A stretch of DNA of 64,000 nt. It comes from an uncultured Gammaproteobacteria bacterium (lineage in GTDB: Bacteria; Pseudomonadota; Gammaproteobacteria; Arenicellales; CALHMG01). A program made the position numbers and the translations under genes. The stretch spans positions 11,263 through 75,262 of the forward strand of contig CALHMG010000046.1 of assembly GCA_938034705.1 (NCBI GenBank), read 5' to 3'. The notes beneath the pieces are model-generated. The model did no database searches. It was not told the origin of the DNA and was given only the letters and a program-made list of their open reading frames with translations. Positions 48,866-64,000 of this stretch are shown one piece after another. How positions within the stretch are numbered: the stretch's first letter is position 1; every line of letters starts with the position of its first letter.

Positions 48866-49804
48866 ATGTCCGTTTTCACCAGTGTCAGTAAAGATGAACT
48901 GACAGATTTCCTCACGGCCTACGATGTCGGCACGCTGGTCGAACACACCGGCATCGAAGACGGCATTGAGAACAGCAACTTCTTCTGTACCACCACAGGT
49001 GGCGAATTCGTACTGACGCTGTTCGAGCGAGTTCCGAGCGAAGATGTTCCGTATTTCATGGACCTCACCGCGTGGCTGGCCGACAACGGTGTTGCCTGCG
49101 CACACCCCGTTGCCGGCAAAGACGGATCCTACTCCAGAATCCTCAATGGCAAGGACGCCGCCCTCGTCCAGCGTTTGCGTGGCAAGGAGCTTGCAACGAT
49201 TGAACCTCAGCATTGCCATGCCGTCGGTGCTGAGCTTGGAAAACTGCATCTTGCCGGGATGACGTTTCGCCACGAACGCGAAAACGCTTTTGGAATACCG
49301 TGGCTGAAGAGCACGATTGAACTGGTTACTCCAAAATGCGACGAGTCAACAATTGAACTGATGCGCTCGCAGCTTGCCGATTTTCAGCGCGTATCCGCCG
49401 ACCTGCCCACCGGCACCATCCACGCTGACATGTTTACCGACAACGTTCTGTTTGACCATGACCGGCTCTCCGGTGTCATAGATTTCTACTACGCGTGTAA
49501 CGAATTCCTGGTTTACGACCTCGCAATAACCATCAACGACTGGTGCAAGCAAGACGACGGCAGTCTCGAACAACAGCGTTTGAAGTCACTGACTGAAGGT
49601 TATGAGAGCGTCCGGCCTCTGGAAGCCATCGAACGTTCGGCGATGCCGGTAATGTTGCGGCGGGCCGCGTTCAGGTTTTTCCTGTCTCGACTGAAAGACA
49701 AGGTATTTCCAAGACAGGGCGAAATGGTCAAAATCAAGGATCCTGAAGTGTTCAGGCGCATTCTCAATCATCATCTTGAAACACAGAGCACGAGCACCGG
49801 TTGA
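48866..49804 (+). CDS. thrB: homoserine kinase (type II, aminoglycoside-phosphotransferase fold)
   Basis: 312 aa from the ATG at 48866. It has MSVFTSVSKDELTDFL..GIENSNF and the kinase core HADMFTDNVLF..VIDFY. Confidence 0.85.
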   Translation: MSVFTSVSKDELTDFLTAYDVGTLVEHTGIEDGIENSNFFCTTTGGEFVLTLFERVPSEDVPYFMDLTAWLADNGVACAHPVAGKDGSYSRILNGKDAALVQRLRGKELATIEPQHCHAVGAELGKLHLAGMTFRHERENAFGIPWLKSTIELVTPKCDESTIELMRSQLADFQRVSADLPTGTIHADMFTDNVLFDHDRLSGVIDFYYACNEFLVYDLAITINDWCKQDDGSLEQQRLKSLTEGYESVRPLEAIERSAMPVMLRRAAFRFFLSRLKDKVFPRQGEMVKIKDPEVFRRILNHHLETQSTSTG

Positions 49805-50223
49805 TGTTTAACACAATCGCCAGAATGACGGCCCTCATTGTCCTGGTTACGGTCGCGATGCCATTTGACGCGATCGCCGACAAGCGCACTCTCATCCGCT
49901 TTTACAAGACGATCAACGACGAGGGGCAGGAGCGCGCGCTCATGATGATCAAAAACGATGACGAGCCGGGTTGTCAGACCGTCCACAGCCTGCGCAAGGC
50001 CAGTCGTGTTGCCGTAATGGGCTTTGAATATTGCGAGATCTACGCAGAACCGGAGTGTGCCGCCGAGACCAGAATTCACCCGCTATGGGCGAAGAAAAAG
50101 AACAAAACGGAAAAGCTGATCGACCGCGCCAAAAATGGCCGCATGACCCAGGGCACGCGTTGGATGCTCGGCAGCGGTGACAACGTCGGATTCAGATCGT
50201 TTCGCTGCGAGCGCACGCCCTGA
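49804..50223 (+). CDS. hypothetical small secreted protein (4 Cys)
   Basis: 139 aa. The ATG overlaps the thrB stop (TGATG). It has signal peptide MFNTIARMTALIVLVTVAMPFDAIA. I recognise no family. Confidence 0.45.
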   Translation: MFNTIARMTALIVLVTVAMPFDAIADKRTLIRFYKTINDEGQERALMMIKNDDEPGCQTVHSLRKASRVAVMGFEYCEIYAEPECAAETRIHPLWAKKKNKTEKLIDRAKNGRMTQGTRWMLGSGDNVGFRSFRCERTP

Positions 50224-50244: not shown

Positions 50245-50279
50245 AAAAAAGGGCGACAGCGTCATCAACGCTGTCGCCC
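50245..50279 (-). terminator. intrinsic terminator of the giant repeat-protein gene
   Basis: GGGCGACAGCG (50251-50261) pairs with CGCTGTCGCCC (50269-50279). On the minus strand the hairpin is followed by T6 (plus-strand A-run at 50245-50250). Confidence 0.65.
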
Positions 50280-50342
50280 CCGGACTTCAGAACAGAACAC
50301 CCTGAACGGTTTCCCGCATGGCGTCAGTTCTTTCCGATTTCC

Positions 50343-53300
50343 CTAGATGTCAGTTGGCACGACCAAAGCATCATCCACCGACGTCTCTCCTGACTCTACG
50401 GCAACGCCTTCAGCCGCCAGCGGATCCGCGGTTTCCTGTGCGGTCGCGGCATCGTCCGCAGGCGTCAGCGCTTCGTCTGCCAGGGGGTCAGCATGAGCTT
50501 CTACCCGGGGTTCCTGCGCGCTGTCGTTAGCGTCGATATCTTCCGTCCAGTTGCTTGACGTCGCGGGTGCGTCGTTCTCAAGCATCGCGTCCACGATTGC
50601 ATCTTCAGTCGTGTCGTCAGTTGCCTCTTCAGTCTCAACTTCCGTTTCAATCACATCGGTCGATGATGCAACCGCTGGTGCCGTCGTGCTTGAAGCCGCA
50701 TGCATTTCCATGCTGTCGACCGCCGAAGCACTGTCTGCGGCTCGGAACTGCTGCGTCTCTGTCACCGCAACCTTCAACGTTGTTGACGCTGTCGCAACAT
50801 CACCACTGTCTTCGGTCGCGACGGCTTCAACGTTGAGGTTAAGCTCGCCTACAAAGTCCTCGGCCGCCGTCACCTTCAGCGTGGACAGATCCGAACGGGC
50901 CACGGTCCAGCTTCCGTCTTCGTTGCGACTGCCGGCAGACAGTGTCGCGTCGTCCGGCAACCCGGTCACAACTACGTCAAGCTGTTCTGATCCATCGAGA
51001 TCCGTGAGTTCAGCCTGGATGTTCAGTGCGATTTCGCTATTGCTTTCGCCCTCCACATCCTGCGCTGAAACAACCGGTGCATCGGCAACTCCTGCGACGT
51101 CAACCTCGAATCGTTTGGTATTCACGACCTGACTGTCGTTAGAGCTCTCGACGGTCGTTGTGATCAAAGTCATCTCGACAACACCACTGAAATTCTCAGG
51201 CGTCATCATGGTAACGAGTGCAAGGTCTGCCGAGTTCACGTTCCAGCCGCCATCAACACGCTGGGTACCGTGACTCAACGAACCGCCTTCGGGTACGCCG
51301 GTAACAATCGCTGAGAGCGTTTCCGACCCGTCGTCGTCACTCAGTCGAGCGGCGAGATCCAGAGCAATTGCTGTATCTTCTTCGCCCGAAACATCGTTGG
51401 CGGTGACATCCGCATCGTCAGCTGCAGCCTCGACCCGAACGCGCACCGTGGTGTCTGTCCTTGCCTGGTCGCCAGTCGCTTCGGTTGAAACAACCGTCAC
51501 GGACATGTCGAAGTCATCGCTGCTGTTCGCAGGTGGCGTCACCGTCAGACCGTCAAGGTCCTCACCAGCGACTTCCCAGCCGTCGGCGCCCATCTGGCCG
51601 CTTGAGAAAACCGCGCCCTCCGGGTAGTCCGAAAACACTGCGCTCAGTGTTTCGGAACCGTCTGCGTCAACCAGTGACGCATTCAGCAATACCGGGATCG
51701 CATTGTCTTCAATACCGTACGCAGACTGCGGGTCTACGGTTGGCGCATCCGCGATGCCAAGCACGGTGACACTGAAAGGAACGGTCGGTGTCTGAGCGGT
51801 TTCGCCCGTATCCATCTCCATGGAGATGCCGGTTATACCCATCTCGATTTCGCCACTGAAATCCTCTGGTGGATTCAGAGAGAGACCGTTGAGCTGGTCA
51901 CCGGTGACTGTCCAGGTTCCATCACCGTTGTTGAAGCCCGTCGACAAAGTCGCGCCGTCCGGAATGCCGTCGATGCGAACCGACATCACTTCCGATCCGT
52001 CGGTGTCCACAAGGTTCGCCGACAGATTCAGTGCAACGCTGTCATCTTCAACACCCTGCACGTCGCTCGCAACGACAGTTGGCTGATCAGGATTCGACGC
52101 CACGCTGAAAGACACTTTGCTGCTCGTGACTGCCTGATCGCCATTTGGCTCTTCGGTGGTCGCGTTAACGGTAACGTTGAACGCACCATGGGCATGCTGT
52201 GGTGGCACGATCTGAACGGTATCAAGCGCGGTCGGATCAACTTCCCAGGTGCCGTCACCGTTGTCGGTTGCGTTAATCAACGTTGCGCCTGCTGGCAGAC
52301 CGCTGATGTTCACAGCTACGACCTTCTCGGAACCGTCTTCGTCCGTGGTCTCAACCATAAGGTTCAGATCAAGGGCCGTGTCTTCCACGCCAACTTCTGG
52401 CACACCACCAATCTCGGCTTCATCGGCTACCGGCACGACGTAGACGTTGGCTGGCTTCAGATTGACGGCATAGTCACCGCTTTGCTCTGTTGCAACAGCA
52501 CCTACGGTGAAGTCCATATCGCCACTGAAATCTTCCGGCGGCGTAACGGTCAGCCCTTCCATATCTTCTGGCGTCAGCGTCCACACCCCGCTGATGGGGT
52601 TCAGATAACCCGCTGACAGCGTTGCGCCTTCTGGCAGATCTTTGACGACGAAAGAGAGCTTCTCTGACCCGTCGAGATCAAAAATCTCACCCGTCACGGT
52701 AATGGAAATTGGCGTGTCTTCGTCGCCGCCCTCGGTTGAGAGCTCAACATCGGGCATGTCGGCAACGCCGAGCACCTCAACCAGCGCACCTGAAGTACCC
52801 TCGTTTCCATGCTCGTCTATCCAGCTGAATTTCAGCCGCATGTCATCGTCGCTGTCCTTTGAAGGAATCAGGGCAAGGTCTGCGGTATCTTCAATATCAA
52901 CCGTCCAGGTACCGTCTTCACCTCGAGTGCCGGCTGAAAATTCTACGTCAGCTGGAACATCAGAGATAACTACCTGGCGTGCGCCGCGCTCTTCGAGCTT
53001 GGAAATGTCAAAGCCAATGTAGTTGTCCTCAAGACCAAAAAAATAGAAATCGCCAGGACCGGTTGTTCGATCAACGTCCATCACAAACGTGGTCGTGTTA
53101 CTCGCGATGTCGCCGTCATTCTCACGTGACACTGCTCGTACCGTGAGGTGCAGTTCGCCTTTGTAGTGAAAAGGCGATGTGCCTGTCAGACCTTCCAGAT
53201 GCGCCTCTGGCACCGTCCAGGTTCCGTCACCATTGTTGAATCCCTTGTTGAAGTGCATGCCTTTGGGAATGTCTTCAATAATGAAATACAGGGTTTCAGA

Positions 53301-56300
53301 GCCGTCGAGATCATTCAGTTGACCACCGAAATCAAGCGCAATAGGCGTGTCGGATTTTCCCGATACGTCATAAGCCCAGACGTCCGGCGTGTCTGCATCA
53401 CCAATCACGTTAACGTTCATGCTTCGGTCAAATGTCGCGGTAGTACCGTCAGCTTCTTCCACCGTTGACTCAACTGTCAGACGAAAATCAACATTCGAGT
53501 TGTAGCCCGGATGCACGCGCAGTCCGTCAAAGTCGCCAGGACTAACCTGCCAGACACCGCTTTCAATCTCGGTACCGGCACTCAGACGCGCTCCGACCGG
53601 AACACCGCGAACGATCGCGCCAACAACAGTTTCAGATCCGTCGATGTCAGTCGTTCGGGGAACGATATCGATTTCAACAGAGGTGTCCTCGAGAACGAGT
53701 GTGTTCGAGAGACCACCCGGCGTATCCACAACACCATCCACCTGCACATTGAACGTGCGGCTGGTGCTGGTTGAGTCGCCATCGTTTTCAGTACTGATGA
53801 CCCGCAGGCTCATCTCGACGTTACCGCTGAAATCACGCGGAGGCGTCATGGTCAGCGACGGCAGATCTGCCGGATCGATCGACCACGTACCGTTGCCGTT
53901 ATAAAGGCCATGGGAGAGTCGGGCGCCGCGAGGCAGCCCGCCAAGCACCACCGACACCTGCTCCGATCCATCGATATCGGCTACCTCGGCTCCAATGTTG
54001 AGCGCGATCGCCGTATCTTCGTCACCACGCGTCTCGCCGACTGTCGCAACTGGCGTGTCGGCTACACCGGTAACCTTGACCGGCAGGGCCAGAGTAATCG
54101 TCGAGGTGTCACCATCGGCTTCGGTCGTCACCGCCGTTACCGCCAGGGAGAAATCCTCGTTCGAGTCTTTCGGTGGAGTAATCGTCAATCCAGCGACGTC
54201 GGCGGCACTCAGGCTCCAGGTGCCGTCACCGTTCTGTCGACCGGCTGACAGCTTCGCGCCACCGGGAACTTCGGCAATGACGAAAGACAGCGTTTCTGAA
54301 CCATCTGAATCGATGAGGCTGGAACGAATATCGAGCGCAATTGCGTTGTCCTCGAGACCTTCGGCAGGACGGATATCAAGATGTGCACGATCGGCCACGC
54401 CTTTGACGTAGAGCGAAAACGGAACTGCTGAATGCGCGGCGTCACCATCAGATTCAGTAGCCGCTGCGTCCATTTCGAGATCGATACGACCGCTGAAGTG
54501 GCGCGGAGGCGTCAAAGTGAGATCTGCCAGTGACTCGGGCGCCACGCTCCATACGCCGCTTGAAATTTCTGTTCCCGCGGAGAGTACTGAACCTGCCGGT
54601 ACGCCCTTGATGAGGACAGACAGCGTTTCAGAACCGTCCGTATCCACGAGGCCGGCATTCAGCTCGAGATCGATTGGCTGATCTTCTTCACCGTTGGTGT
54701 CCAGCGCGTTTACAACAGGCGCATCTGCCACACCGGTGAGCTTCACGGACATGTTGCGTGAAGTTGAACGGGTGCTGCCGTTGCTTTCAATCGTCTCAGC
54801 CGTGATTCGAATAGAAAAGTCCTGATTGCTGTGCAACGGTGGAGCGAGAGTCAAGCCAACGAGTTCTTCTTCGGAAAGCGTCCAGCTGCCATCTCCGTTG
54901 TCGATTCCTGCCGACAGCGTGCTGCCTTCGGGGAGTCCGCTGAGGACAACGCTACCCACCCGCTCGGAGCCGTCTTTGTCGCTTGGTGAGATGCTGATCG
55001 ACAGAGGCACCTGGCCATCTTCGAGACCACGAGCGGTTTTGCGCGTGATCAAGGCCGCGTCCGCAACCGCATCAATGCTGACGACAAGCGAACCTGCCGT
55101 TGTAGCGACATCACCATCGTTTTCGGTAGAAACCGCGCTGACGCCAAGAACGATCTCGCCGCTGAAATTCTGTGGCGGTGTGATCATCAGGCCTTCAAGG
55201 TCATCCTCAGTGAGGCTCCAGCTGCCGTCTTCGTTGGCGACACCCTGGTTCAGGGATGCACCCTCGGGCACATGGTCAACGATGAACGAAAGCGTTTCTG
55301 ATCCATCAAGGTCAGTCAGCGCACCACCAAAGTTGATAGCCACCGGCAGGTCTTCAGTGCCCACAGCGTCCTCTGTCACCAGAGTCGGCGCATCTGCCAC
55401 ACCCGTTACGCGCACAGGCAGATCAATGGTCGTGGATGCGCGCTCGCCGCTGCTCTCAACAGAGGTTGCGGTGACGACGAGCATCATGTCTTCGTTGCTG
55501 TCCGCCGGTGCAGTAATCGTTGCGTTAGCGAACTGATCAGATGTCAGCGTCCAGGTGCCGTTTCCGTTGTCGACACCCGTTGAAAGCATCGCACCTTCGG
55601 GCAGGTTGCCGATTACTACGGATTCGATGCGCTCGGAACCATCGATATCAACCAGCGCTGCTGTCAGCGCCAGGTCGATTGGCTGGTCCTCGTAGCCGCG
55701 CGCGCCACCGGTGCCTGCATTATCTGTGGTGTCGAACTGAAGCGATCCAGTCCACCACATCTTTTTCATGCCCGTAAACACCTTGCCGTCGGCGCCACGA
55801 ATGAACTGTGCACTCATGGAGTCGTAACTGGTGCCGTTGACCTCGAGTTCGTGAACGACAAGGTTGCGATCTTTACCGGGACCTTCCCATCGGTCATTTA
55901 GAAATTTCACTTCCACCGAAGCCGGGCCGTCCAGACCGAACTGGCCAGTGATTTCCAGCGTTTCCGTTTCGTTGTTGGCGAAGTCGGCTTCGACGGTGTA
56001 GGTATCACCGTACTGCTCGCCGTTGATGAAAATCTGATAATCAGGCGCACCTTTGTAGTGCTGACCCGAAACGGTCAGACGGATCGAACTGGTGAGGCCA
56101 TCACCATTGTCGTGAATAAACGCAGGCGCATCTGCAACCGCACCTACCGCAACAGACAGAGTCGACACTTTGCTGGCGGTGTCGCCCGTATCCTTTTGGG
56201 TCGAGATAACCTCAACCTTCAGATCGAACGGCTCGTCGCTATGCAGCGGCGGTGTTATCGTCAGTCCTTCGAGTTCATGGGCTGCCAGAAACCAGTTGCC

Positions 56301-58736
56301 CGCCTCGTTACGTGTGCCCGCCGACAGCGTCGCGCCTTCGGGGACATCGGCGACAAGAATCGTGACGACCTCGTTCGGGTCCGCGCTGTACGCGTCAATA
56401 TTGAGCTCAATGGCGTTGTCTTCGAGACCGGCAGCGTGCTCAATCGTCACAACCGGCTCACCGGCAACGCCGTCGAGCGTAATTTTGAAGTTGGTCTGTG
56501 TGGTCGCCTGGTCGCCGTTTTCGGCCTCCGTCGCTACCGCCGTCACACCGATGATGACTTCACCACTGGTGTTCGCCGGTGGCGTCAGTACGACGTCACC
56601 AATCTCGCTACCGTCAACGGTCCAGGTGCCATCCTCATTGCTGACACCGTGCGAAAGAGTCGAACCCGCGGGTACGCCTGTGAGAATCAGCGTAAGCGCT
56701 TCCGATCGATCGATATCCGTAATCGCCGCGTCCAGGGATAGCTTTACGGGCTGTCCCTCCGTTCCGCGAACGTCCTCGGCGCTCACGACCGGAGCATCCG
56801 CTACGGCGTCCACCGTCACTGGCACCACGAAATCCTGAGACCGGGTATCGCCGTTTGCGGTTTCCGTCGTGTTAAAGGTGAAATTCAGATCGAAGTCCTG
56901 ATCACTGTCCTGGGGTGCAGTAACGGTCAGTCCCTCGAGCTCGGCTTCGCTGAGCGACCATTCGCCATTGCCTCTATCGACGCCGGCAGAAAGAGCGGCG
57001 CCCGCAGGAATGTTGCTGACGATGATTTCGCGAATTTTCTCTGATCCATCGCTGTCGATCAGGCTCATGTCGAACACGATTGCGATTGGAGAGTCTTCGT
57101 CGCCGCGAGCACCGGCAGGTCCGCCGTTGTCGGCTGTTGCGAATACCAGACGTCCTTCCCAGTTCATGCGCTCACGTGCGCTCATCCATGTCTGAGCCTG
57201 GTATCCGGTTGCTACCTCATTGCCGGGATCAATTGGATTGCCAAACTCATCGCAGTGTTCAGTACCGGCATCCGCTGCGATTTCATAACGCAGGTAACGC
57301 GAGTCGGTTTCTGACTGGTACACGTGACCGTTAACTTCAATCCAGTCAACAATCAGATTTCGATCTGCACAGTTTGGTTTGCACCAGAGGTCGTTGGTGA
57401 ATTCAACTTCGACCGTTTGCGGCCCCGTGTCACCGTAATCGCCCGTGATGCTGAAGATTTCCCACTCGCCTTCAGCGTAGGAGGCGTTCGCTTTATGTAC
57501 CGGACCAGTTGCCTCACCGTTGACAAGAACCCGGAACTCCGGCGGGCCGTCAAAGCGGTCGTTAATGCTGTCAAACCCTTCACCCGACAGACGCACCCTG
57601 ATGATGCTCAGCTCGTCAGGAGTCTTGATCGCAACACCGTCAGCTACGGCGTTGACGTCCACGGCAACATTGTGGACCGTAGTAGAGCGGGACTCGCTGT
57701 CCTGCTCTCGTGTCGTGACCGCGACATCCAGTGAAAAATTCTCGTCCGAGTTTTTCGCCGTCATCAGCTCAAGCCCTTCGAGATCATCGGCTTCGAGTTC
57801 CCACTTGCCGTCCTCGCGCAGTCTGCCGGCGGTGAATGAGGAACCGCCGGGCATACCACCAACAACGATCGAATCCACGACTTCCGACCCGTCGTGGTCC
57901 GTCAGCGCAGGGGTAAAGTCCATGGCGATGCCGGTGTCTTCTGTGCCGCTGGCAGAGGAGATCGCAATCGCGGCGACATCAGCGACCGGATTGACACGCA
58001 CAAACACAGGAACCGTTTCCTGCTGTGCCTCGTCTGTCTCGGTGTTTACACCGCGGGCGGTGATGTCGAGATTGAAATCGTCACTGGAGTTTTCACCAGG
58101 CGTGATGGTGAGATCCGCTGCGTCATCGACACCAAGAGTCCATGAACCGTCTTCGTTACGCGTGCCGGCGGAAAGCTTGGCCTCGGCGGGGACGCCGGAG
58201 ACTGTGAGCTCGTTCACCGCAAAGCCGTCTGCCTCGCCCGGGATATCCAGATTCAGGGCAATCGCGCTGTCTTCGTCTCCCTCGATCCAGTTCGGACCGC
58301 CAACATTCGAGGTGTCCAGAACAAGTTGACCGGACCAGGCCATTACGGCGTGGCCGGCAAGTTCCTTGCCGTCGTAGCCGCGACGATAAGATGCGTCGCC
58401 GGCTTCGAATGCCTTGCCGTTCACTTCGATGGAGTTGACGACAAGGTTTCGATCCTGGCTGGCGCTGTCGTAACGGTCGTTCAGAAACTCGATGGAAACA
58501 TTCGTCGGCCCATTGGCACCAAAGTCGCCGCGAACCTGAAACTGCTCGTTCTGCTCAAGCGCACGTGAAGCGGATACGACAAACGTGTCACTCGCGATTT
58601 CGCCGTTTACCCAGACACGGAATTTTGGCTCACCAAGATAATGGTCGCCTGATACGTCAACGATAATCGTGGACAAACCGTCGCGCTCTGCGACGTTGAA
58701 TTTGGTGTTTGAGACGGTGCGAGTATTGTCGTTCAT
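50343..58736 (-). CDS. giant (2,797 aa) secreted repeat protein / putative T1SS-exported adhesin
   Basis: The start is taken at the ATG at 58734-58736 (MNDNTRTV..); the ORF track begins at a TTG 72 nt upstream. It has ~22 tandem ~111-aa repeats of the form EDTAIAL.I....D.DGSETLS..I.GVP.GA.LSAG..NGDGTW......L.GLT.TPP..FSG, with 16 exact DxDGSE motifs. Three ~130-160-aa modules share the ..ND(R/L)(Y/W)......DRNL(V/I)V..(I/L)EVNG pattern. The C-terminal tail is acidic. It lies immediately downstream of HlyD/ABC genes. Confidence 0.9.
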   Translation of the reverse strand: MNDNTRTVSNTKFNVAERDGLSTIIVDVSGDHYLGEPKFRVWVNGEIASDTFVVSASRALEQNEQFQVRGDFGANGPTNVSIEFLNDRYDSASQDRNLVVNSIEVNGKAFEAGDASYRRGYDGKELAGHAVMAWSGQLVLDTSNVGGPNWIEGDEDSAIALNLDIPGEADGFAVNELTVSGVPAEAKLSAGTRNEDGSWTLGVDDAADLTITPGENSSDDFNLDITARGVNTETDEAQQETVPVFVRVNPVADVAAIAISSASGTEDTGIAMDFTPALTDHDGSEVVDSIVVGGMPGGSSFTAGRLREDGKWELEADDLEGLELMTAKNSDENFSLDVAVTTREQDSESRSTTVHNVAVDVNAVADGVAIKTPDELSIIRVRLSGEGFDSINDRFDGPPEFRVLVNGEATGPVHKANASYAEGEWEIFSITGDYGDTGPQTVEVEFTNDLWCKPNCADRNLIVDWIEVNGHVYQSETDSRYLRYEIAADAGTEHCDEFGNPIDPGNEVATGYQAQTWMSARERMNWEGRLVFATADNGGPAGARGDEDSPIAIVFDMSLIDSDGSEKIREIIVSNIPAGAALSAGVDRGNGEWSLSEAELEGLTVTAPQDSDQDFDLNFTFNTTETANGDTRSQDFVVPVTVDAVADAPVVSAEDVRGTEGQPVKLSLDAAITDIDRSEALTLILTGVPAGSTLSHGVSNEDGTWTVDGSEIGDVVLTPPANTSGEVIIGVTAVATEAENGDQATTQTNFKITLDGVAGEPVVTIEHAAGLEDNAIELNIDAYSADPNEVVTILVADVPEGATLSAGTRNEAGNWFLAAHELEGLTITPPLHSDEPFDLKVEVISTQKDTGDTASKVSTLSVAVGAVADAPAFIHDNGDGLTSSIRLTVSGQHYKGAPDYQIFINGEQYGDTYTVEADFANNETETLEITGQFGLDGPASVEVKFLNDRWEGPGKDRNLVVHELEVNGTSYDSMSAQFIRGADGKVFTGMKKMWWTGSLQFDTTDNAGTGGARGYEDQPIDLALTAALVDIDGSERIESVVIGNLPEGAMLSTGVDNGNGTWTLTSDQFANATITAPADSNEDMMLVVTATSVESSGERASTTIDLPVRVTGVADAPTLVTEDAVGTEDLPVAINFGGALTDLDGSETLSFIVDHVPEGASLNQGVANEDGSWSLTEDDLEGLMITPPQNFSGEIVLGVSAVSTENDGDVATTAGSLVVSIDAVADAALITRKTARGLEDGQVPLSISISPSDKDGSERVGSVVLSGLPEGSTLSAGIDNGDGSWTLSEEELVGLTLAPPLHSNQDFSIRITAETIESNGSTRSTSRNMSVKLTGVADAPVVNALDTNGEEDQPIDLELNAGLVDTDGSETLSVLIKGVPAGSVLSAGTEISSGVWSVAPESLADLTLTPPRHFSGRIDLEMDAAATESDGDAAHSAVPFSLYVKGVADRAHLDIRPAEGLEDNAIALDIRSSLIDSDGSETLSFVIAEVPGGAKLSAGRQNGDGTWSLSAADVAGLTITPPKDSNEDFSLAVTAVTTEADGDTSTITLALPVKVTGVADTPVATVGETRGDEDTAIALNIGAEVADIDGSEQVSVVLGGLPRGARLSHGLYNGNGTWSIDPADLPSLTMTPPRDFSGNVEMSLRVISTENDGDSTSTSRTFNVQVDGVVDTPGGLSNTLVLEDTSVEIDIVPRTTDIDGSETVVGAIVRGVPVGARLSAGTEIESGVWQVSPGDFDGLRVHPGYNSNVDFRLTVESTVEEADGTTATFDRSMNVNVIGDADTPDVWAYDVSGKSDTPIALDFGGQLNDLDGSETLYFIIEDIPKGMHFNKGFNNGDGTWTVPEAHLEGLTGTSPFHYKGELHLTVRAVSRENDGDIASNTTTFVMDVDRTTGPGDFYFFGLEDNYIGFDISKLEERGARQVVISDVPADVEFSAGTRGEDGTWTVDIEDTADLALIPSKDSDDDMRLKFSWIDEHGNEGTSGALVEVLGVADMPDVELSTEGGDEDTPISITVTGEIFDLDGSEKLSFVVKDLPEGATLSAGYLNPISGVWTLTPEDMEGLTVTPPEDFSGDMDFTVGAVATEQSGDYAVNLKPANVYVVPVADEAEIGGVPEVGVEDTALDLNLMVETTDEDGSEKVVAVNISGLPAGATLINATDNGDGTWEVDPTALDTVQIVPPQHAHGAFNVTVNATTEEPNGDQAVTSSKVSFSVASNPDQPTVVASDVQGVEDDSVALNLSANLVDTDGSEVMSVRIDGIPDGATLSTGFNNGDGTWTVTGDQLNGLSLNPPEDFSGEIEMGITGISMEMDTGETAQTPTVPFSVTVLGIADAPTVDPQSAYGIEDNAIPVLLNASLVDADGSETLSAVFSDYPEGAVFSSGQMGADGWEVAGEDLDGLTVTPPANSSDDFDMSVTVVSTEATGDQARTDTTVRVRVEAAADDADVTANDVSGEEDTAIALDLAARLSDDDGSETLSAIVTGVPEGGSLSHGTQRVDGGWNVNSADLALVTMMTPENFSGVVEMTLITTTVESSNDSQVVNTKRFEVDVAGVADAPVVSAQDVEGESNSEIALNIQAELTDLDGSEQLDVVVTGLPDDATLSAGSRNEDGSWTVARSDLSTLKVTAAEDFVGELNLNVEAVATEDSGDVATASTTLKVAVTETQQFRAADSASAVDSMEMHAASSTTAPAVASSTDVIETEVETEEATDDTTEDAIVDAMLENDAPATSSNWTEDIDANDSAQEPRVEAHADPLADEALTPADDAATAQETADPLAAEGVAVESGETSVDDALVVPTDI
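50754..55703 (-). repeat. uninterrupted run of ~15 diverged coding tandem repeats (~333 nt / ~111 aa period) inside the giant gene
   Basis: DxDGSE motifs recur at ORF-track aa 1055, 1167, 1279, 1390, 1501, 1612, 1722, 1834, (degenerate ~1945), 2045, 2157, 2269, 2382, 2492 and 2604. Confidence 0.8.
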
Positions 58737-58968
58737 CGGATTGGTCCTTGAGTTGGCCTCTTGCCGAGGCGTACTGAATTTGAAAAAGTTCTGGTGTTGG
58801 TAACGCAAGTTCTGTGCCAGATCTGGGCCTTGATCTGACCGGCTGTTTTTCCCTCAAAAAGCAGGAAGAACTGCGTTAAATGGCTGGTTCGGGTCAACTA
58901 TTGCTGCTGTGCCGGATGCTGTTTGCGAACCGCGAACATCGCCTTTGCATTTTGCGAATCGATTGGCA

Positions 58969-60282
58969 TCACCGTTCGCGAAAGCCTCCATCGAGGCTGG
59001 TGTAGATGGGTTTGAGCATGTATTCGAACAGCGTTTTGCTGCCCGTTCGGATATCGGCTTGCAGCGTCATGCCCGGGAGAATCTTTTTTTCGGGCCCCAG
59101 ATGCGCCTGCTTCAAAATGACTCGTCCCCGGTAATAAACGGATCCGTCATCTCGCGCGTATGTCGTTGGAGATACGCTGTTCAGCATCCCCTCGACCGCA
59201 CCGAATCTTGCAAAATCGAATGCGTTAACCTTTACGGCAACTTCCTGACCGGACTGAACAAACCCGATGTCTCGTGGCGAAATCTCTATGTCGGCAATGA
59301 GTTCTTCGTCTACAGGAACAATCTGCGCAATCATCGAACCGGCGGCGAGTACGTCACCGACGGACGTGACGCTCAGATTCTGGATAACCCCGTCCACGGG
59401 AGCCGTCACCTCAAGCCGAACAACCCGGTCCTCCAGTCCTTTTGCAACCTCGTGGAGCTCAGAAAGCTGTGATGTCGTTTCCGCAAGCTCGACCGTTGCG
59501 CGTTCGCGATAGCGATTTTCCAGTTCAGCGATCCGGGTTCTGGTTTCACTGATGTCTTCGCGGGACTGCGCGATATCCCCGTTGAGTCTCGCGATATCGG
59601 TATTAATCGACTCGTAGGTTTCCTGAATCTTGATGAGCTCAAGACGGCTGCCCGTGCCGGACTTGCTCAGCCGTTCACGCATTTCGACTTCTTTGGCTAC
59701 CAGGGAGCGTCTCTTTTTGTAACTTTCGATCTCCGCGTTAAGAGACACGATCCGAGCATCACTCGCGACCAGACGACCCTTCAAAACATTTCGCTCACTG
59801 TTGAGACTGGCTCTGCGGGACTCGAAAACGGCCAGTTCATTTTTGGTGATCGTGCTGCCGGGGTTTTCAAAAACCGGTTTTTTGCCTTCAAGCTCGGCGC
59901 GAATGCGAACCGCTCGTGTCTTAAACACTTCTGATCGTGCCAGCATGCGATCGCGTTCAGCCGTTGCCGACTTTCTCTTCAGACGAACCAGCGCATCGCC
60001 GGCCGCGACTCTGGAACCGTCGCTGACCAGAATCTCATCGACGATTCCACCTTCAAGATGCTGAACACTTCGAATCTCTCCGGCCGGGATTATTCGACCT
60101 GGCGCGATCGCCTTTTCTTCGAGCGATGCGGTTGCGGACCACGTGATCAACGCGCCCAGAGCACCAAACACGACCAGCATCATTCGGCCGGTTAAAGCCG
60201 AGGCTCTTCGTGAGTTGATCGGCGACAGGTCCGGGTGCCGTGCCGCAATGGATTTTGAGTTCGTCATAACCTTCGTTTCCAC
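58969..60282 (-). CDS. type I secretion system membrane fusion protein (HlyD family)
   Basis: 437 aa with an N-terminal TM helix (MMLVVFGALGALITW). It has GRIIPAGEIRSVQHLEGGIVDEILV, a long coiled coil, and C-terminal VTAPVDGVIQNL...GMTLQADIRTG, which is the typical T1SS HlyD layout. Confidence 0.9.
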   Translation of the reverse strand: METKVMTNSKSIAARHPDLSPINSRRASALTGRMMLVVFGALGALITWSATASLEEKAIAPGRIIPAGEIRSVQHLEGGIVDEILVSDGSRVAAGDALVRLKRKSATAERDRMLARSEVFKTRAVRIRAELEGKKPVFENPGSTITKNELAVFESRRASLNSERNVLKGRLVASDARIVSLNAEIESYKKRRSLVAKEVEMRERLSKSGTGSRLELIKIQETYESINTDIARLNGDIAQSREDISETRTRIAELENRYRERATVELAETTSQLSELHEVAKGLEDRVVRLEVTAPVDGVIQNLSVTSVGDVLAAGSMIAQIVPVDEELIADIEISPRDIGFVQSGQEVAVKVNAFDFARFGAVEGMLNSVSPTTYARDDGSVYYRGRVILKQAHLGPEKKILPGMTLQADIRTGSKTLFEYMLKPIYTSLDGGFRER

Positions 60283-60295
60283 TTATCCAAAAGGA

Positions 60296-62437
60296 TCAAG
60301 CTTTGAGTTTTTCTTCCAGTTCACCGGCTTCGCCAAAGAACCGAACCGCGCCACGATCCAACATCAGTGCCTTGTCACAAACACCGAGGTGCTCGGGTCG
60401 ATGAGTGACCAGAACGATCGTGCTGCGCTGGCGCAAAGATTCAATCGCCTCTATCAGGGCGTATTCGCTCTCGAAATCCAGACCCACGGTCGGCTCATCA
60501 AGAAGCACGATCGGGGCGGGTCTGATCCACGCGCGGGCGAGGGAGATTCTGGCAACGAGACTGGTCGGGAGCGCTGCCGGATTGCGGGGATCAACGGCGG
60601 TGTTTAAACCCTCGGGCAAGCTCTCCACGACCTCACGCGCCCCGGCGAGTTCAAGCGCAGCCCAGATGTCCTGCCGGGAGATCCCGGGCTCGGCAACGAT
60701 CAGGTTCTCCGCCAGGGATCCCGCAATCAGTTTCGGGACCTGGGGCGCATAGGCGATCACACGACGCAAAGACGCCGGATCGGTCTGCTTGAGGTTGCGT
60801 CCGTCCAGAAGAATTCGACCAGCCTGGGGGTGGTACATGCCGAGTAACAGTTTCAGGACGGTCGATTTACCGGCACCGTTACTGCCTATGACACCGAGAA
60901 CCTCACCCGGCTGGACCTCGAAACTCACGTTTGCCAGTTCCGGCTCGGCCGCGCCATATCGGAAAGTCACACGATCAAACTTTATCTCGCCACCGAAATG
61001 CGGCAACACCTCGGGCACCCGGGACGGGCTCCCGTCAGTTTCCAGATTCAGAAAACTCGCCACGTGGCCAAAAGACCGTTTTGCCTGTTTGATCTGGGGT
61101 CCCGCCGCGAATACAGCCTGGACCGGTGCGAACACACGCCAGGTCAGCATCACTGTTGCGATGAGCGCACCCGGGGACATGGCGCCGTCAATAACAAGAC
61201 CGATACCTGCGAGCAACGTCGCGAGACCGGTCCCCATCGTCATACCCTGACCCAGTGAGCTCAGCCAGGCACGAGTACTCGCATTACGCGCGTTAGCCTG
61301 CGCCGACGCCTCGTGTATTTCGTCAAATCGCTCGTTCCATTCATCCGCCGTACCGGTCTGGCGAATCGATGGCGACTTCTCGATAGTTTCCAGCACAAGA
61401 TCCTGACGTTGCTGGTCGAGCATCGACGCTGCGGTTTCGCGTTGATTGATTCTGCCCGCGAGCACAATCCCGATCGCCACAAAGATACAAATGGCGATGA
61501 GCGGAACCAGGGCAAGCTTTCCGCCAATGACAACAATCGCGCCGAGAAAAATCAGCACAAACGGCGCGTCGATCAGCGATACAACGGTGGTTCCGGAAAG
61601 CACGCGCCTGATCGAGTCGAAACCTTTCAAGCGCATGATCTGCGTTGAAACCGTCGAACGTTCGGTCAACGCTGACGGTAGCGACATCAGATGTTCGAAC
61701 AGCCGAGTCGATGACACATAGCCCATCTCGGCGCTCGTTGCAGACGCAAGCTCCGTGCGCAACATGCGCAGCAGCAGATCAGCAATCAGAGCAATCGCAA
61801 CTCCCGGCAACAGGTGTACCAGTGTCAGAGAACCCGTCGAACCAACGACCCGGTCATACACGGTCATGACAAAGATCGGAGTCGCGAGCGCCAGCAGATT
61901 GATAAAAAGGGAGACCGCCGCGATCCGCTTGATTCGACTCCTGGCATGAGAGACAAGTTCTGACACCCATGCGCCTTTGGCTTCGCCCGAACGCGCGCCC
62001 CCGGGCAAACCTGCAAGAAGCACCTTACCTTTGATGCGTTTTGACTTGACCACGCGCTCTTCGCGCAGGCCGAGATCATGAATGCGATATCCATGGGCCG
62101 TAACGGCCAGCACCACCCACCACTGATTCTTTTTCGTACACAAAATTGCCGGCAGTCTTGATTCGTCGAGATCACCAAGAACACACGGTTGAACACTGGT
62201 TTCGTAGGCAAGTCGGTGAAGCGCGAGCTCAAGGATGCCGTGATCGATCTCTTCAAAATCACGCTGACCTGCGGCTTCGGCAATGCTTCGTGGGCTGCGC
62301 GAGTCGCCCATGGCATTCAGCAATACGGTCAGCGCGTAAGCGGCTACCGGCTGTTGCTCATAAGCGAGCGCCGGTTCGTGGCTGGATGACGAATCCAGTC
62401 CCAGAAAATCCCACCCGTCACCTGTATTCGTGGTCAC
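60296..62437 (-). CDS. T1SS ABC exporter (TMD+NBD) with N-terminal C39-like domain lacking catalytic residues
   Basis: 713 aa with a GTG start overlapping the upstream ABC stop (GTGA). The N-terminal ~150 aa resemble the HlyB C39-like domain. The TMD has the VYDRVVGS motif. The NBD has Walker A GSNGAGKST, Q-loop YAPQ, Walker B IVLLDE and H-loop VTHR, but reads LPTSL where LSGGQ is expected. Confidence 0.9.
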   Translation of the reverse strand: MTTNTGDGWDFLGLDSSSSHEPALAYEQQPVAAYALTVLLNAMGDSRSPRSIAEAAGQRDFEEIDHGILELALHRLAYETSVQPCVLGDLDESRLPAILCTKKNQWWVVLAVTAHGYRIHDLGLREERVVKSKRIKGKVLLAGLPGGARSGEAKGAWVSELVSHARSRIKRIAAVSLFINLLALATPIFVMTVYDRVVGSTGSLTLVHLLPGVAIALIADLLLRMLRTELASATSAEMGYVSSTRLFEHLMSLPSALTERSTVSTQIMRLKGFDSIRRVLSGTTVVSLIDAPFVLIFLGAIVVIGGKLALVPLIAICIFVAIGIVLAGRINQRETAASMLDQQRQDLVLETIEKSPSIRQTGTADEWNERFDEIHEASAQANARNASTRAWLSSLGQGMTMGTGLATLLAGIGLVIDGAMSPGALIATVMLTWRVFAPVQAVFAAGPQIKQAKRSFGHVASFLNLETDGSPSRVPEVLPHFGGEIKFDRVTFRYGAAEPELANVSFEVQPGEVLGVIGSNGAGKSTVLKLLLGMYHPQAGRILLDGRNLKQTDPASLRRVIAYAPQVPKLIAGSLAENLIVAEPGISRQDIWAALELAGAREVVESLPEGLNTAVDPRNPAALPTSLVARISLARAWIRPAPIVLLDEPTVGLDFESEYALIEAIESLRQRSTIVLVTHRPEHLGVCDKALMLDRGAVRFFGEAGELEEKLKA

Positions 62438-64000
62438 GTGCTGACTCCCTGCGCTGTCTGTTGCTGTTCCGTAGTCGGTGTTTCCGAGTTCAGTTCAGCC
62501 TGCCAGAGATCTATCACCTGATCGGCCTCAGCCAGGAGTTCAGGGTCATAGGTAACGTAGATGACCGTCGTGTGTCCGCGAAGTTGATTGAGCAGGCGTT
62601 TAACTGCGTTCTTGCCCTGCGCGTCCATCGCCGAAAACGACTGATCGGCCAGAATCACGCCCGGCTGGTCGAGCAGACTGCGCGCAAGACACATGCGCTG
62701 GACAAAACCCCGGGAGAACGTGTTGGCGACATCAGATACCGGCGTGTCAAAACCTTTGGGCAACACATCGATATCGTCCGCGAAGTCAAGAAATCGAGCG
62801 GCCTTGATAGCCGCATCACGCAGGTGCGGCCGAAACCCTGTCAGGTTTTCAACGAACGTCCCTTTGAAAAGAGAATCGCCCTGATCAAGTCGAACAATAG
62901 TGCGACGCCTGTTCGTTGGCGCAATCGAGGCGACGTTAGCGCCATCTACAAGCACCACGCCGGACTCCGGCGCGAGCTCACCCGACAGCACCTGCAGAAC
63001 CGTGCTCTTGCCGCTTGCGTTGGGTCCGATCAGAGCGACAATCTGACCAGGCTCAATGTCGAGATCCACCGGCGCAACGGTTGCTCTGGTTGCGGAGGGA
63101 ACGGCAAACCGCACGCCTCGCAACACCACATGACCGCGAACCGTCGACGGCGCCAGAGACGCAAGACCCGGCTCGGATTGAGGCACATCCATGAGCTTGT
63201 TCATGCGATGTCGAGTCGTTGCGACCGAAATGTATTTGGTCCACATACCCACCGCCGAGCGCAGTGGTTGAAGCGCACGGCCTGCGAGAATCGTGCAGGC
63301 AGCGAGGGCACCGGTAGTCAACTCGGTAGCGTTCACCAGCAGCGCGCCATGGCACACGACACAAACGGTGCAGCACTGACCGAGGAACCCGACAAAATCA
63401 CCCAGGTGCACGCCAACTTTTTCGCTTTTCGCCTGGGCCCTGATTCGTGCCACCTGAAGCGCTTCGTAGCGATCGGTCATCGCAACTTCCATCGCGAGTG
63501 CGCGTATGTTGTGACCCGCGCCCAACACGCTGATAAGAAAATCGTTGACCGCAGAATCCGCGTCAATCTGTGCGTTGTGGCGCAACCGCAACGACGGGGT
63601 CACGGCGATGACAATGAGCGCGGCGACGGCGAGCGCTGCCACCGGCCACGCCACCAGCCAGCCACCCAGCACTGCGATGAACAAAAGAAAGACCACCGCG
63701 AAAAGTACGTCAAAGATCAACACCATGGGTTGACCCGCTTCGAACTCGCGAACGGCATTGACCGCGTTGAATCGATCAAGATGTTCGCCCGTTCCGGTTG
63801 AGTTCAGAGAACGCGGGTCGGCACCGAGAATCCGGTTGAACAGCGTTTTACCTGTTTGGCTTTCGAATCGGTGGCCGGCGTAAGCGAGAATTTTTGACCG
63901 AGCGACGCGCAGAAGAAGTTCTACGACAATTGCCGAAGCGACCGCGAGGCCGAGCAGCATCGCGGTATCACGAGATTCGTTGGGAATTATGCGGTCATAG
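62434..64000 (-). CDS. second T1SS-type ABC exporter (TMD+NBD), 5' end outside the window; degenerate NBD
   Basis: The reading frame stays open upstream of the track's ATG at 63960 (..YDRIIPNESRDTAMLLGL.., the conserved TMD YDR motif), so the gene continues past 64000. The NBD has Walker A GPNASGKS, but FSRGF for LSGGQ, VILADQ for hhhhDE, and VTYD for the H-loop. Confidence 0.85.
   Translation of the reverse strand, partial: YDRIIPNESRDTAMLLGLAVASAIVVELLLRVARSKILAYAGHRFESQTGKTLFNRILGADPRSLNSTGTGEHLDRFNAVNAVREFEAGQPMVLIFDVLFAVVFLLFIAVLGGWLVAWPVAALAVAALIVIAVTPSLRLRHNAQIDADSAVNDFLISVLGAGHNIRALAMEVAMTDRYEALQVARIRAQAKSEKVGVHLGDFVGFLGQCCTVCVVCHGALLVNATELTTGALAACTILAGRALQPLRSAVGMWTKYISVATTRHRMNKLMDVPQSEPGLASLAPSTVRGHVVLRGVRFAVPSATRATVAPVDLDIEPGQIVALIGPNASGKSTVLQVLSGELAPESGVVLVDGANVASIAPTNRRRTIVRLDQGDSLFKGTFVENLTGFRPHLRDAAIKAARFLDFADDIDVLPKGFDTPVSDVANTFSRGFVQRMCLARSLLDQPGVILADQSFSAMDAQGKNAVKRLLNQLRGHTTVIYVTYDPELLAEADQVIDLWQAELNSETPTTEQQQTAQGVST

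Follow-up and report, generated by a model that had tools for sequence, protein, structure and literature searches.

The DNA analysed here, referred to as the window, is a stretch of 64,000 nucleotides from an uncultured gammaproteobacterium of the order Arenicellales (GenBank assembly GCA_938034705.1, contig CALHMG010000046.1, positions 11,263 to 75,262 of the forward strand), and its minus strand encodes a protein of 2,797 amino acids and 292 kDa, hereafter the giant protein. We consider it fairly probable that this protein is the cargo of a four-gene type I secretion system (T1SS) cassette, exported as a glycan-binding adhesin or matrix protein that would be rigidified by Ca2+. It combines three CBM60 modules with an array of repeats of the cadherin-like fold class, its gene is linked to three export genes, it lacks both the nonapeptides of RTX (repeats-in-toxin) proteins and the retention features of cell-anchored adhesins, and its acidic C-terminal tail is conserved in a second sequence.

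Architecture of the giant protein

The reading frame on the minus strand is open for 2,821 codons (50343..58808), and translation probably begins with the ATG at 58736, which has AAGGA 8-12 nt upstream. The product is very acidic, with 506 Asp plus Glu residues against 128 Lys plus Arg (computed isoelectric point ~4), and its three Cys residues all lie inside a span of 44 residues in the second CBM60 module. No hydrophobic N-terminal segment was found. At E<=1, Pfam searches matched CBM60, Cadherin_4, Cadherin_5 and Big_9, and the sole NCBIfam match for the whole protein was tandem-95 (NF012211), at 64.3 bits, below its cut-off of 90. The modules were assigned by Pfam, by alignment, by AlphaFold2 (AF2) models and by a self-built hidden Markov model (HMM) of the repeats, and are arranged as follows.

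50343..58736, minus strand: giant cargo gene, 2,797 aa, 292 kDa
58317..58688, minus strand: CBM60 module 1, at the N-terminus (residues ~17-140; Pfam PF16841, alignment)
57645..58316, minus strand: cadherin-like repeats R1-R2 (residues 141-364; self-built HMM)
57141..57644, minus strand: CBM60 module 2, with an insertion (residues 365-532; Pfam, alignment)
56136..57140, minus strand: cadherin-like repeats R3-R5 (residues 533-867; self-built HMM)
55734..56135, minus strand: CBM60 module 3 (residues 868-1001; Pfam, alignment, AF2 model)
53064..55733, minus strand: cadherin-like repeats R6-R13 (residues 1002-1891; self-built HMM)
52764..53063, minus strand: degenerate repeat and linker (residues 1892-1991, the unit itself being 1901-1988; self-built HMM)
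50754..52763, minus strand: cadherin-like repeats R15-R20 (residues 1992-2661; self-built HMM, AF2, Foldseek)
50346..50753, minus strand: acidic C-terminal tail, predicted to be disordered (residues 2662-2797), candidate T1SS secretion signal
50249..50281, minus strand: intrinsic terminator (15-bp stem with 9 G-C pairs, T tail)

The repeat HMM was built from 16 motif-anchored units of the giant protein and recognized 20 repeats, 19 full and one degenerate, rather than the ~22 counted in a preliminary description made from the sequence alone. The protein length and the 16 exact copies of D-x-D-G-S-E given in that description were confirmed by the reading frame and by a regular-expression count, the copies recurring with a period of 110-113 aa that is wider where other modules intervene; one D-x-D-R-S-E variant is also present. 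The degenerate repeat has no D-x-D-G-S-E motif, and the closest full-length relative (P0008, see below) carries such a unit at the matching place. The repeat core GVP.GA.LSAG was likewise recovered within the consensus IxGVPxGAxLSAGxxNxDGxWxxxxxxLxGLxxTPP, derived from 51 aligned repeat pairs of the giant protein and two relatives, which also served as the alignment for AF2.

Cadherin_4 (PF17803) matched nine stretches of the protein with 98.7 bits against a cut-off of 25.1 (E 2.7e-28). In an AF2 model of the last two repeats and the tail, both beta-sandwiches were predicted with a pLDDT (predicted local distance difference test) of ~98, and the top Foldseek matches in the PDB were extracellular cadherin (EC) tandems of protocadherin and cadherin-23 (E ~3e-7, probability 1.0). 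A sequence profile matched the large adhesion protein of Aeromonas hydrophila (9cse, E 2e-10), and two homologs (P0044 and P0046) bear the UniRef name 'RapA2 cadherin-like domain'. By profile and predicted fold, the repeats are bacterial cadherin-like domains of the Cadherin_4 / RapA2 CHDL (cadherin-like) type. Across the 51 repeat pairs, D2, E15, D16, D29, D31, S33, E34 and E92 are fully or almost fully conserved (>=90%); D2 belongs to an A-D-x-P linker, and D29, D31, S33 and E34 form the D-x-D-G-S-E motif. These conserved acidic positions fit cadherin-type interdomain Ca2+ sites. The earlier suggestion of Ig/cadherin-like repeats with probable Ca2+ sites is thus upheld as to the fold by Cadherin_4, AF2 and Foldseek, and the acidic positions make the repeats probable Ca2+ binders.

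The CBM60 modules, missed in the preliminary description, were matched by PF16841 with 170.6 bits in all against a cut-off of 28.2, in three stretches covering profile positions 1-86 of 91. The best stretch spans residues 23-115 and the others fall inside residues 365-532 and 868-1001, so that all three modules lie in the N-terminal third and break up the repeat array. The third module modelled with repeat R6 gave a mean pLDDT of 88, and Foldseek searches with this two-domain model returned diffuse matches only. Three such modules would make the giant protein a multivalent glycan binder. In the homolog searches made, three CBM60 modules with a cadherin-like array were otherwise seen only in the relatives P0003 and P0008 and the fragment P0090.

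Absence of RTX and LapA-type features

The giant protein has none of the tested features that define RTX proteins and LapA-type adhesins. HemolysinCabind (PF00353) gave no match at E<=1, and a regular expression for GGxGxD/N found no occurrence in the protein, as had been noted by eye; with the same PF00353 model, five RTX repeats were detected elsewhere in the genome, in a gene on contig C244. NCBIfam contained no curated T1SS C-terminal target domain matching the protein at E<=1. The profile searches that were proposed earlier as a way of refuting the absence of these elements therefore detected neither RTX nor a C-terminal target domain in Pfam or NCBIfam.

No N-terminal retention module was matched at E<=1 in Pfam or in NCBIfam, which we take to include a model for it, and the only domain at the N-terminus is CBM60, from residue 23. 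LapG cleaves at the consensus [T/A/P]-A-A-[G/V], and this site is absent from the entire protein by regular expression; within the first 400 residues AA occurs just twice, in DDAADL and DVAAIA. The absence of an N-terminal LapA-type retention module and of a LapG site near the N-terminus, first noticed by eye, thus holds by profile and by regular expression. LapG itself (Peptidase_C93, PF06035) had no match at E<=0.01 in the genome, which is 85% complete.

The RTX-bearing frame on contig C244 (C244:1-3164) encodes at least 758 aa before it is cut by the contig end, and comprises thrombospondin-type-3-like D-x-D-x-D-G repeats, a VCBS-like segment, the five HemolysinCabind matches and the C-terminus ...NETDFVV. 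It is a classical RTX T1SS substrate, and the organism accordingly has both RTX-bearing and RTX-less cargoes. This contig was considered as the missing 3' end of the giant gene and ruled out, being a different protein with other repeats that ends in DFVV.

Export cassette upstream of the giant gene

The order of genes on the minus strand is ABC-1, ABC-2, HlyD and the giant gene, with the three export genes (the first two encoding ATP-binding cassette, ABC, exporters) directly upstream of the cargo.

62434..64000, minus strand: ABC-1, short exporter, LssB/HlyB-like; it passes the window end and extends to C46:75423 (position on the contig) at most
60296..62437, minus strand: ABC-2 exporter, 713 aa, LssB/HlyB-like
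58969..60282, minus strand: HlyD-family type I secretion adaptor, 437 aa (TIGR01843, 344 bits, cut-off 209)

The linkage to a T1SS reported in the preliminary description was confirmed by these three genes on the same strand. The giant protein shows the general traits of a T1SS substrate, namely an adjoining ABC and HlyD pair, no Sec signal, an acidic composition and few Cys residues. This locus has no TolC-family gene, and such genes are present at five sites elsewhere in the genome. The cargo start codon follows the hlyD stop codon after a gap of 232 bp (58737-58968; 7-303 bp in relatives), in which neither a consensus sigma-70 promoter nor a coding-strand terminator was found, so that co-transcription of hlyD and the cargo gene is possible.

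The two exporters differ in their ATP sites. ABC-2 has LPTSL in place of LSGGQ and an intact Walker B and H-loop, and the ATP site of ABC-1 is degenerate, with FSRGF for LSGGQ, ILADQ for the Walker B Glu and VTYD for the H-loop His. In all six two-ABC cassettes compared (the window, L004 and L010-L013; see below), neither ABC subunit keeps LSGGQ. Across these cassettes ABC-2 retains Walker A, the Walker B Glu and the H-loop His, and ABC-1 variably lacks Walker A, Walker B or H-loop residues, Walker A being gone in both Desulfovibrionales loci.

ABC-2 also carries an N-terminal extension of ~160 aa, in which residues 28-123 weakly match Peptidase_C39 (E 0.008; 16.4 bits, below the cut-off of 22). 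The alignment of ABC-2 to HlyB begins at HlyB residue 64, and a profile of six ABC-2 family N-termini gave no match to the C39-like domain of HlyB in the PDB. ABC exporters with a C39-like domain have been reviewed as correlating with RTX cargo (PMC8277102), a correlation that the present locus would challenge only if the N-terminal domain of ABC-2 is truly C39-like.

On the other side of the giant gene, a 140-aa open reading frame (49801-50223, plus strand) overlaps the thrB stop codon and is convergent with the giant gene; it has no match in Pfam or NCBIfam. The terminator listed above sits between this frame and the giant gene. The polA-DUF2782-thrB gene neighbourhood, an arrangement known from Pseudomonas, and the nearest relative of the giant protein suggest a gammaproteobacterial host.

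Relatives and the two-ABC cassette family

A word-seeded search retrieved 320 proteins at E<=1e-10. The closest full-length relative is P0008, an ENA metagenome protein of 3,001 aa (47% identity, 94% coverage), which is colinear with the giant protein module for module, including the three CBM60 modules and the degenerate unit. A second relative, P0003 (4,432 aa, 48% identity), is encoded on the chromosome of a gammaproteobacterial metagenome-assembled genome (MAG; OZ246012.1). P0008, P0003 and P0090 begin with a degenerate repeat instead of CBM60. Homology between P0008 and the giant protein stops exactly at '...TLKVAVTETQQ', where P0008 continues with one additional repeat, three RTX nonapeptides and a domain ending '...LEFYDVVRVEW', elements of the closest colinear ortholog that escaped the preliminary description. 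P0003 has the same terminal domain and no nonapeptides.

The order short ABC, long ABC, HlyD and giant gene was found in five more loci (L004, L010, L011, L012 and L013), the hosts being the P0003 MAG, Microvirga mediterraneensis, Pseudodesulfovibrio piezophilus, Thalassospira sp. SN3W and Desulfobaculum bizertense. This order holds whether the cargo has 13 nonapeptides, as in Thalassospira, or none. The P0008 locus (L003) is cut by the contig end, with part of ABC-2 and HlyD retained before the giant gene at a 44-bp gap. Compared over their full length, the pump proteins of different two-ABC cassettes show only 29-40% identity. The giant protein is therewith a member of a family of two-ABC cassette giants that is known to the databases and undescribed.

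Among 112 homologs with a non-repeat C-terminus, three or more GGxGxD/N nonapeptides were counted in 56, one or two in 10 and none in 46. The lack of RTX is consequently a trait of the family and no novelty of the giant protein. It follows that the departure from the RTX and LapA/BapA paradigms proposed at the outset stands as regards the absent features and was overstated as regards their singularity, since RTX-less and RTX-bearing giants share the two-ABC/HlyD cassette and precedents have been published for SiiE, RapA and BapP.

The homologs fall into several classes by their C-termini, comprising a '...VERIEW' domain, the Microvirga-type acidic 'AWTEQID...ARTHWS' tails, RTX followed by 'TLTIDxx', and assorted acidic tails. 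The first is a terminal domain of ~60 aa ('...DWTLxLDEG...SGxIxFxDGxELxFxNVERIEW') that closes at least 53 of the 112 homologs, among them the nonapeptide-free P0010, P0078, P0100, P0101 and P0115; no NCBIfam family covers the domain of this type in P0008 or P0003. As the colinear P0008 keeps both RTX and its terminal domain, the real peculiarity of the giant protein is a swap of its C-terminal module. What is new at the level of the gene is this swap within a colinear ortholog, a near-unique acidic tail, and the rare combination of triple CBM60 and cadherin-like array; the giant protein is otherwise typical of its large, uncharacterised family.

The C-terminal acidic tail

The tail comprises 136 non-repeat, acidic residues, with no Lys, two Arg and one Trp. 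The same junction between last repeat and tail occurs in P0123, a 278-aa metagenomic fragment on a 1,231-bp JGI contig from a different sample, which is 57% identical overall and ~70% identical in its repeat. The blocks AIVDAM..ND.PA..SNWTEDID, EPRV.A.ADPL.DEAL, ADPLAA and TS.DD.L.V are kept in P0123, up to the C-terminus. Residues ~2735-2797 (50346-50560, minus strand) contain an internal duplication of two 'ADPL(A/S)x(E/D)' units ~24 residues apart, both also conserved in P0123. The tail ends in DDALVVPTDI (DDTLTVVDV in P0123), an acidic residue followed by hydrophobic ones, a pattern that recalls, as a resemblance only, the motif at the very C-terminus of T1SS substrates of the protease and lipase type. 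No relatives of the tail were found in 40 genomes of the same order, a set with no other member of the same family or genus, nor in JGI metagenome contigs and GTDB genomes searched by pattern and tblastn.

Long repeat genes are prone to misassembly and the metagenome assembly consists of 380 contigs and is 85% complete, hence we considered whether the repeat array had been artificially joined to an unrelated acidic C-terminus beside thrB. Such a chimera is highly improbable, given that P0123 shares the junction, that the protein sequences of the repeats share only 30-45% identity with the reference pair, their DNA being therefore too little repetitive to collapse, and that no compositional break exists: the GC content at third codon positions (GC3) of the tail is 0.588, inside the 0.612 +/- 0.048 of the gene body.

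Another explanation is that the gene is decaying, a deletion or recombination having removed the last repeat, RTX and the terminal domain and left a cytoplasmic remnant that the pump no longer recognizes. The abrupt end of homology to P0008, the loss of the degenerate repeat found at the N-terminus of the relatives, and the degenerate catalytic residues of ABC-1 would agree with this. However, the 8.4-kb frame is intact and is followed, 62 nt past its stop codon, by a proper terminator; no frameshifted remnant of RTX or a terminal domain is hidden in other frames or downstream; the degenerate sites of ABC-1 are shared across the cassettes and show no sign of local decay; and RTX is missing in 46 of the 112 family members. 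The tail blocks are moreover conserved to the C-terminus in P0123, in spite of the divergence of its repeat, and the tail has therefore persisted through speciation. We regard decay as distinctly unlikely. The shared junction, the terminator, the GC3 value and the absence of an RTX remnant together speak against misassembly and against a recent breakage of the gene, and from the first three of these the tail is genuine. It most likely carries the secretion signal, probably in its conserved distal half.

Proposed export, folding and retention

In the model that we favour, of an exported, glycan-binding giant, the protein would be made without a Sec signal and remain unfolded in the low-Ca2+ cytoplasm. 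The acidic tail, probably its conserved distal half, would be recognized by the heterodimeric ABC exporter and HlyD, and the protein would leave C-terminus first via a channel of the TolC family whose gene lies outside this locus. Outside the cell, Ca2+ may bind the A-D-x-P linker, G-x-E-D, D-x-D-G-S-E and T-E-x-x-G-D motifs of the repeats, and the 20 beta-sandwiches would fold in succession, replacing the RTX ratchet and forming a rod ~90 nm long. Multivalent, Ca2+-dependent binding of polysaccharide by the three CBM60 modules would follow.

Several observations weigh against this model. The closest relatives, P0008 and P0003, end in the '...LEFYDV(V/T)RVEW' domain that the giant protein lacks, hence the cognate pump might expect a signal that has been lost. 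The tail is wholly disordered in prediction (pLDDT 42-58, no helix or other secondary structure), and a HMMER search of 1.84 billion representative proteins found P0123 as its sole relative. The tail and the Microvirga-type tails both carry a W-T-E-x-I-D motif, and homology between them is unsupported: the best phmmer E-value in the set of 112 was 0.017, an HMM comparison scored 3.3 bits, with 15 of 2,000 shuffles at least as good, and P0123 did not score above shuffles. CBM60 is assigned by profile only, with no solved CBM60 structure recovered by phmmer or Foldseek, and the lectin modules sit near the N-terminus, whereas LapA-type adhesins bear theirs at the distal tip. As the genome is incomplete, the absence of LapG is no proof.

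As to the fate of the exported protein, the lack of a retention module, a LapG site and LapG makes release likelier, and the giant protein, like RapA, would probably associate with cells or matrix by means of its lectin modules and not as a plug in an outer-membrane channel. The alternative is a cell-anchored adhesin, in which the N-terminal CBM60 or another N-proximal element folds early and plugs the TolC-like channel, functionally like the LapA/MpIBP retention module, yet unrelated to it and not regulated by LapG. A folded domain does begin at ~residue 17, right at the N-terminus, giant T1SS adhesins are typically held by N-terminal elements (PMC12153261), and SiiE, which has no LapG system, is held at the cell transiently (PMC5466336). 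Pfam, however, describes CBM60 as Ca2+-dependent, from which we infer that the low Ca2+ level of the cytoplasm should keep it from folding; P0008, P0003 and P0090 start with a degenerate repeat, so that this N-terminal element is not conserved; no retention-module profile matched; and the topology would place the sugar-binding modules beside the cell rather than at the tip. Anchoring by such a plug is thus unlikely, and release of a lectin-bearing protein remains our preferred reading.

Comparison with known systems

The nearest parallel in repeat family is provided by RapA1/RapA2 of Rhizobium leguminosarum, exported by PrsDE, which share Cadherin_4 with the giant protein. RapA lectins are extracellular polysaccharide-binding matrix proteins (PMC5061743, PMC9298526), Ca2+-dependent and secreted by a T1SS with cadherin-like domains and no RTX, and the giant protein would be alike if it binds Ca2+ and is exported. 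RapA consists of two cadherin-like domains only (PMC5061743), whereas the giant protein has 20 along with three CBM60 modules, the likelier lectin part. The pumps also differ, PrsDE as against a two-ABC cassette, and the rap genes lie away from their pump genes (PMC5061743), unlike the giant gene.

SiiE of Salmonella enterica (SiiCDF) has a C-terminal signal, lectin-like binding and no LapG system, and its Ca2+ sites, distinct from the RTX motif, have been proposed to act as an RTX-like ratchet (PMC5466336). It is built from BIg domains without CBM60, in contrast to the Cadherin_4 repeats and three CBM60 modules of the giant protein, and its pump has one ABC protein (SiiF) with the accessory proteins SiiAB instead of two ABC proteins; the N-proximal position of the binding modules is a further difference.

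With LapA/MpIBP (LapBCE, LapG/LapD) the giant protein has in common a giant extender of beta-sandwiches, stiffened by Ca2+ in the former and putatively so here, sugar-binding modules and a dedicated T1SS. Their defining features (RTX block, retention module, [TAP]AA[GV] site and LapG) were not found for the giant protein in the searches above, and its ligand modules occupy the N-terminal third rather than the C-terminal tip. BapP of Pseudoalteromonas tunicata, a marine Ca2+-dependent adhesin with cadherin-like and Big_9 repeats and a putative T1SS, also has no retention module (PMC12153261); unlike the giant protein, it comprises 12 beta-sandwich repeats with an N-terminal beta-propeller and no CBM60.

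The cassette resembles the atypical MARTX T1SS of Vibrio (RtxB, RtxD, RtxE and TolC), in which two unlike ABC proteins and one adaptor serve a very large cargo and tolC lies elsewhere (PMC3034196). The likeness is one of gene content, the gene order being B-D-E there and ABC-ABC-HlyD here, and the MARTX cargo is an RTX toxin, whereas the giant protein has no RTX.

Implications

How T1SS pumps recognize their cargo is still poorly defined. We tentatively propose, as an idea somewhat more apt to fail than to hold, that the C-terminal export module is interchangeable within one orthologous cargo lineage that uses a single type of two-ABC pump, a disordered, Lys-free tail having taken the place of a folded '...VERIEW' domain (with or without RTX) and acting as an RTX-independent signal, and the Ca2+-driven folding of the repeats acting as the ratchet. 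If so, T1SS targeting regions would include a second class, so far undescribed, formed by the acidic tails of the RTX-less ~40% of the family. The locus and its relatives constitute natural matched sets of near-colinear cargoes with the same pump type, whose ends are RTX with a folded domain, that domain without RTX, or an acidic tail predicted to be disordered, and signal-swap experiments are consequently straightforward to design. The triple CBM60 and cadherin-like array points to a class of marine glycan-binding adhesins with their lectins at the last-exiting end, an arrangement that bears on how such proteins may attach without a LapA-type plug.

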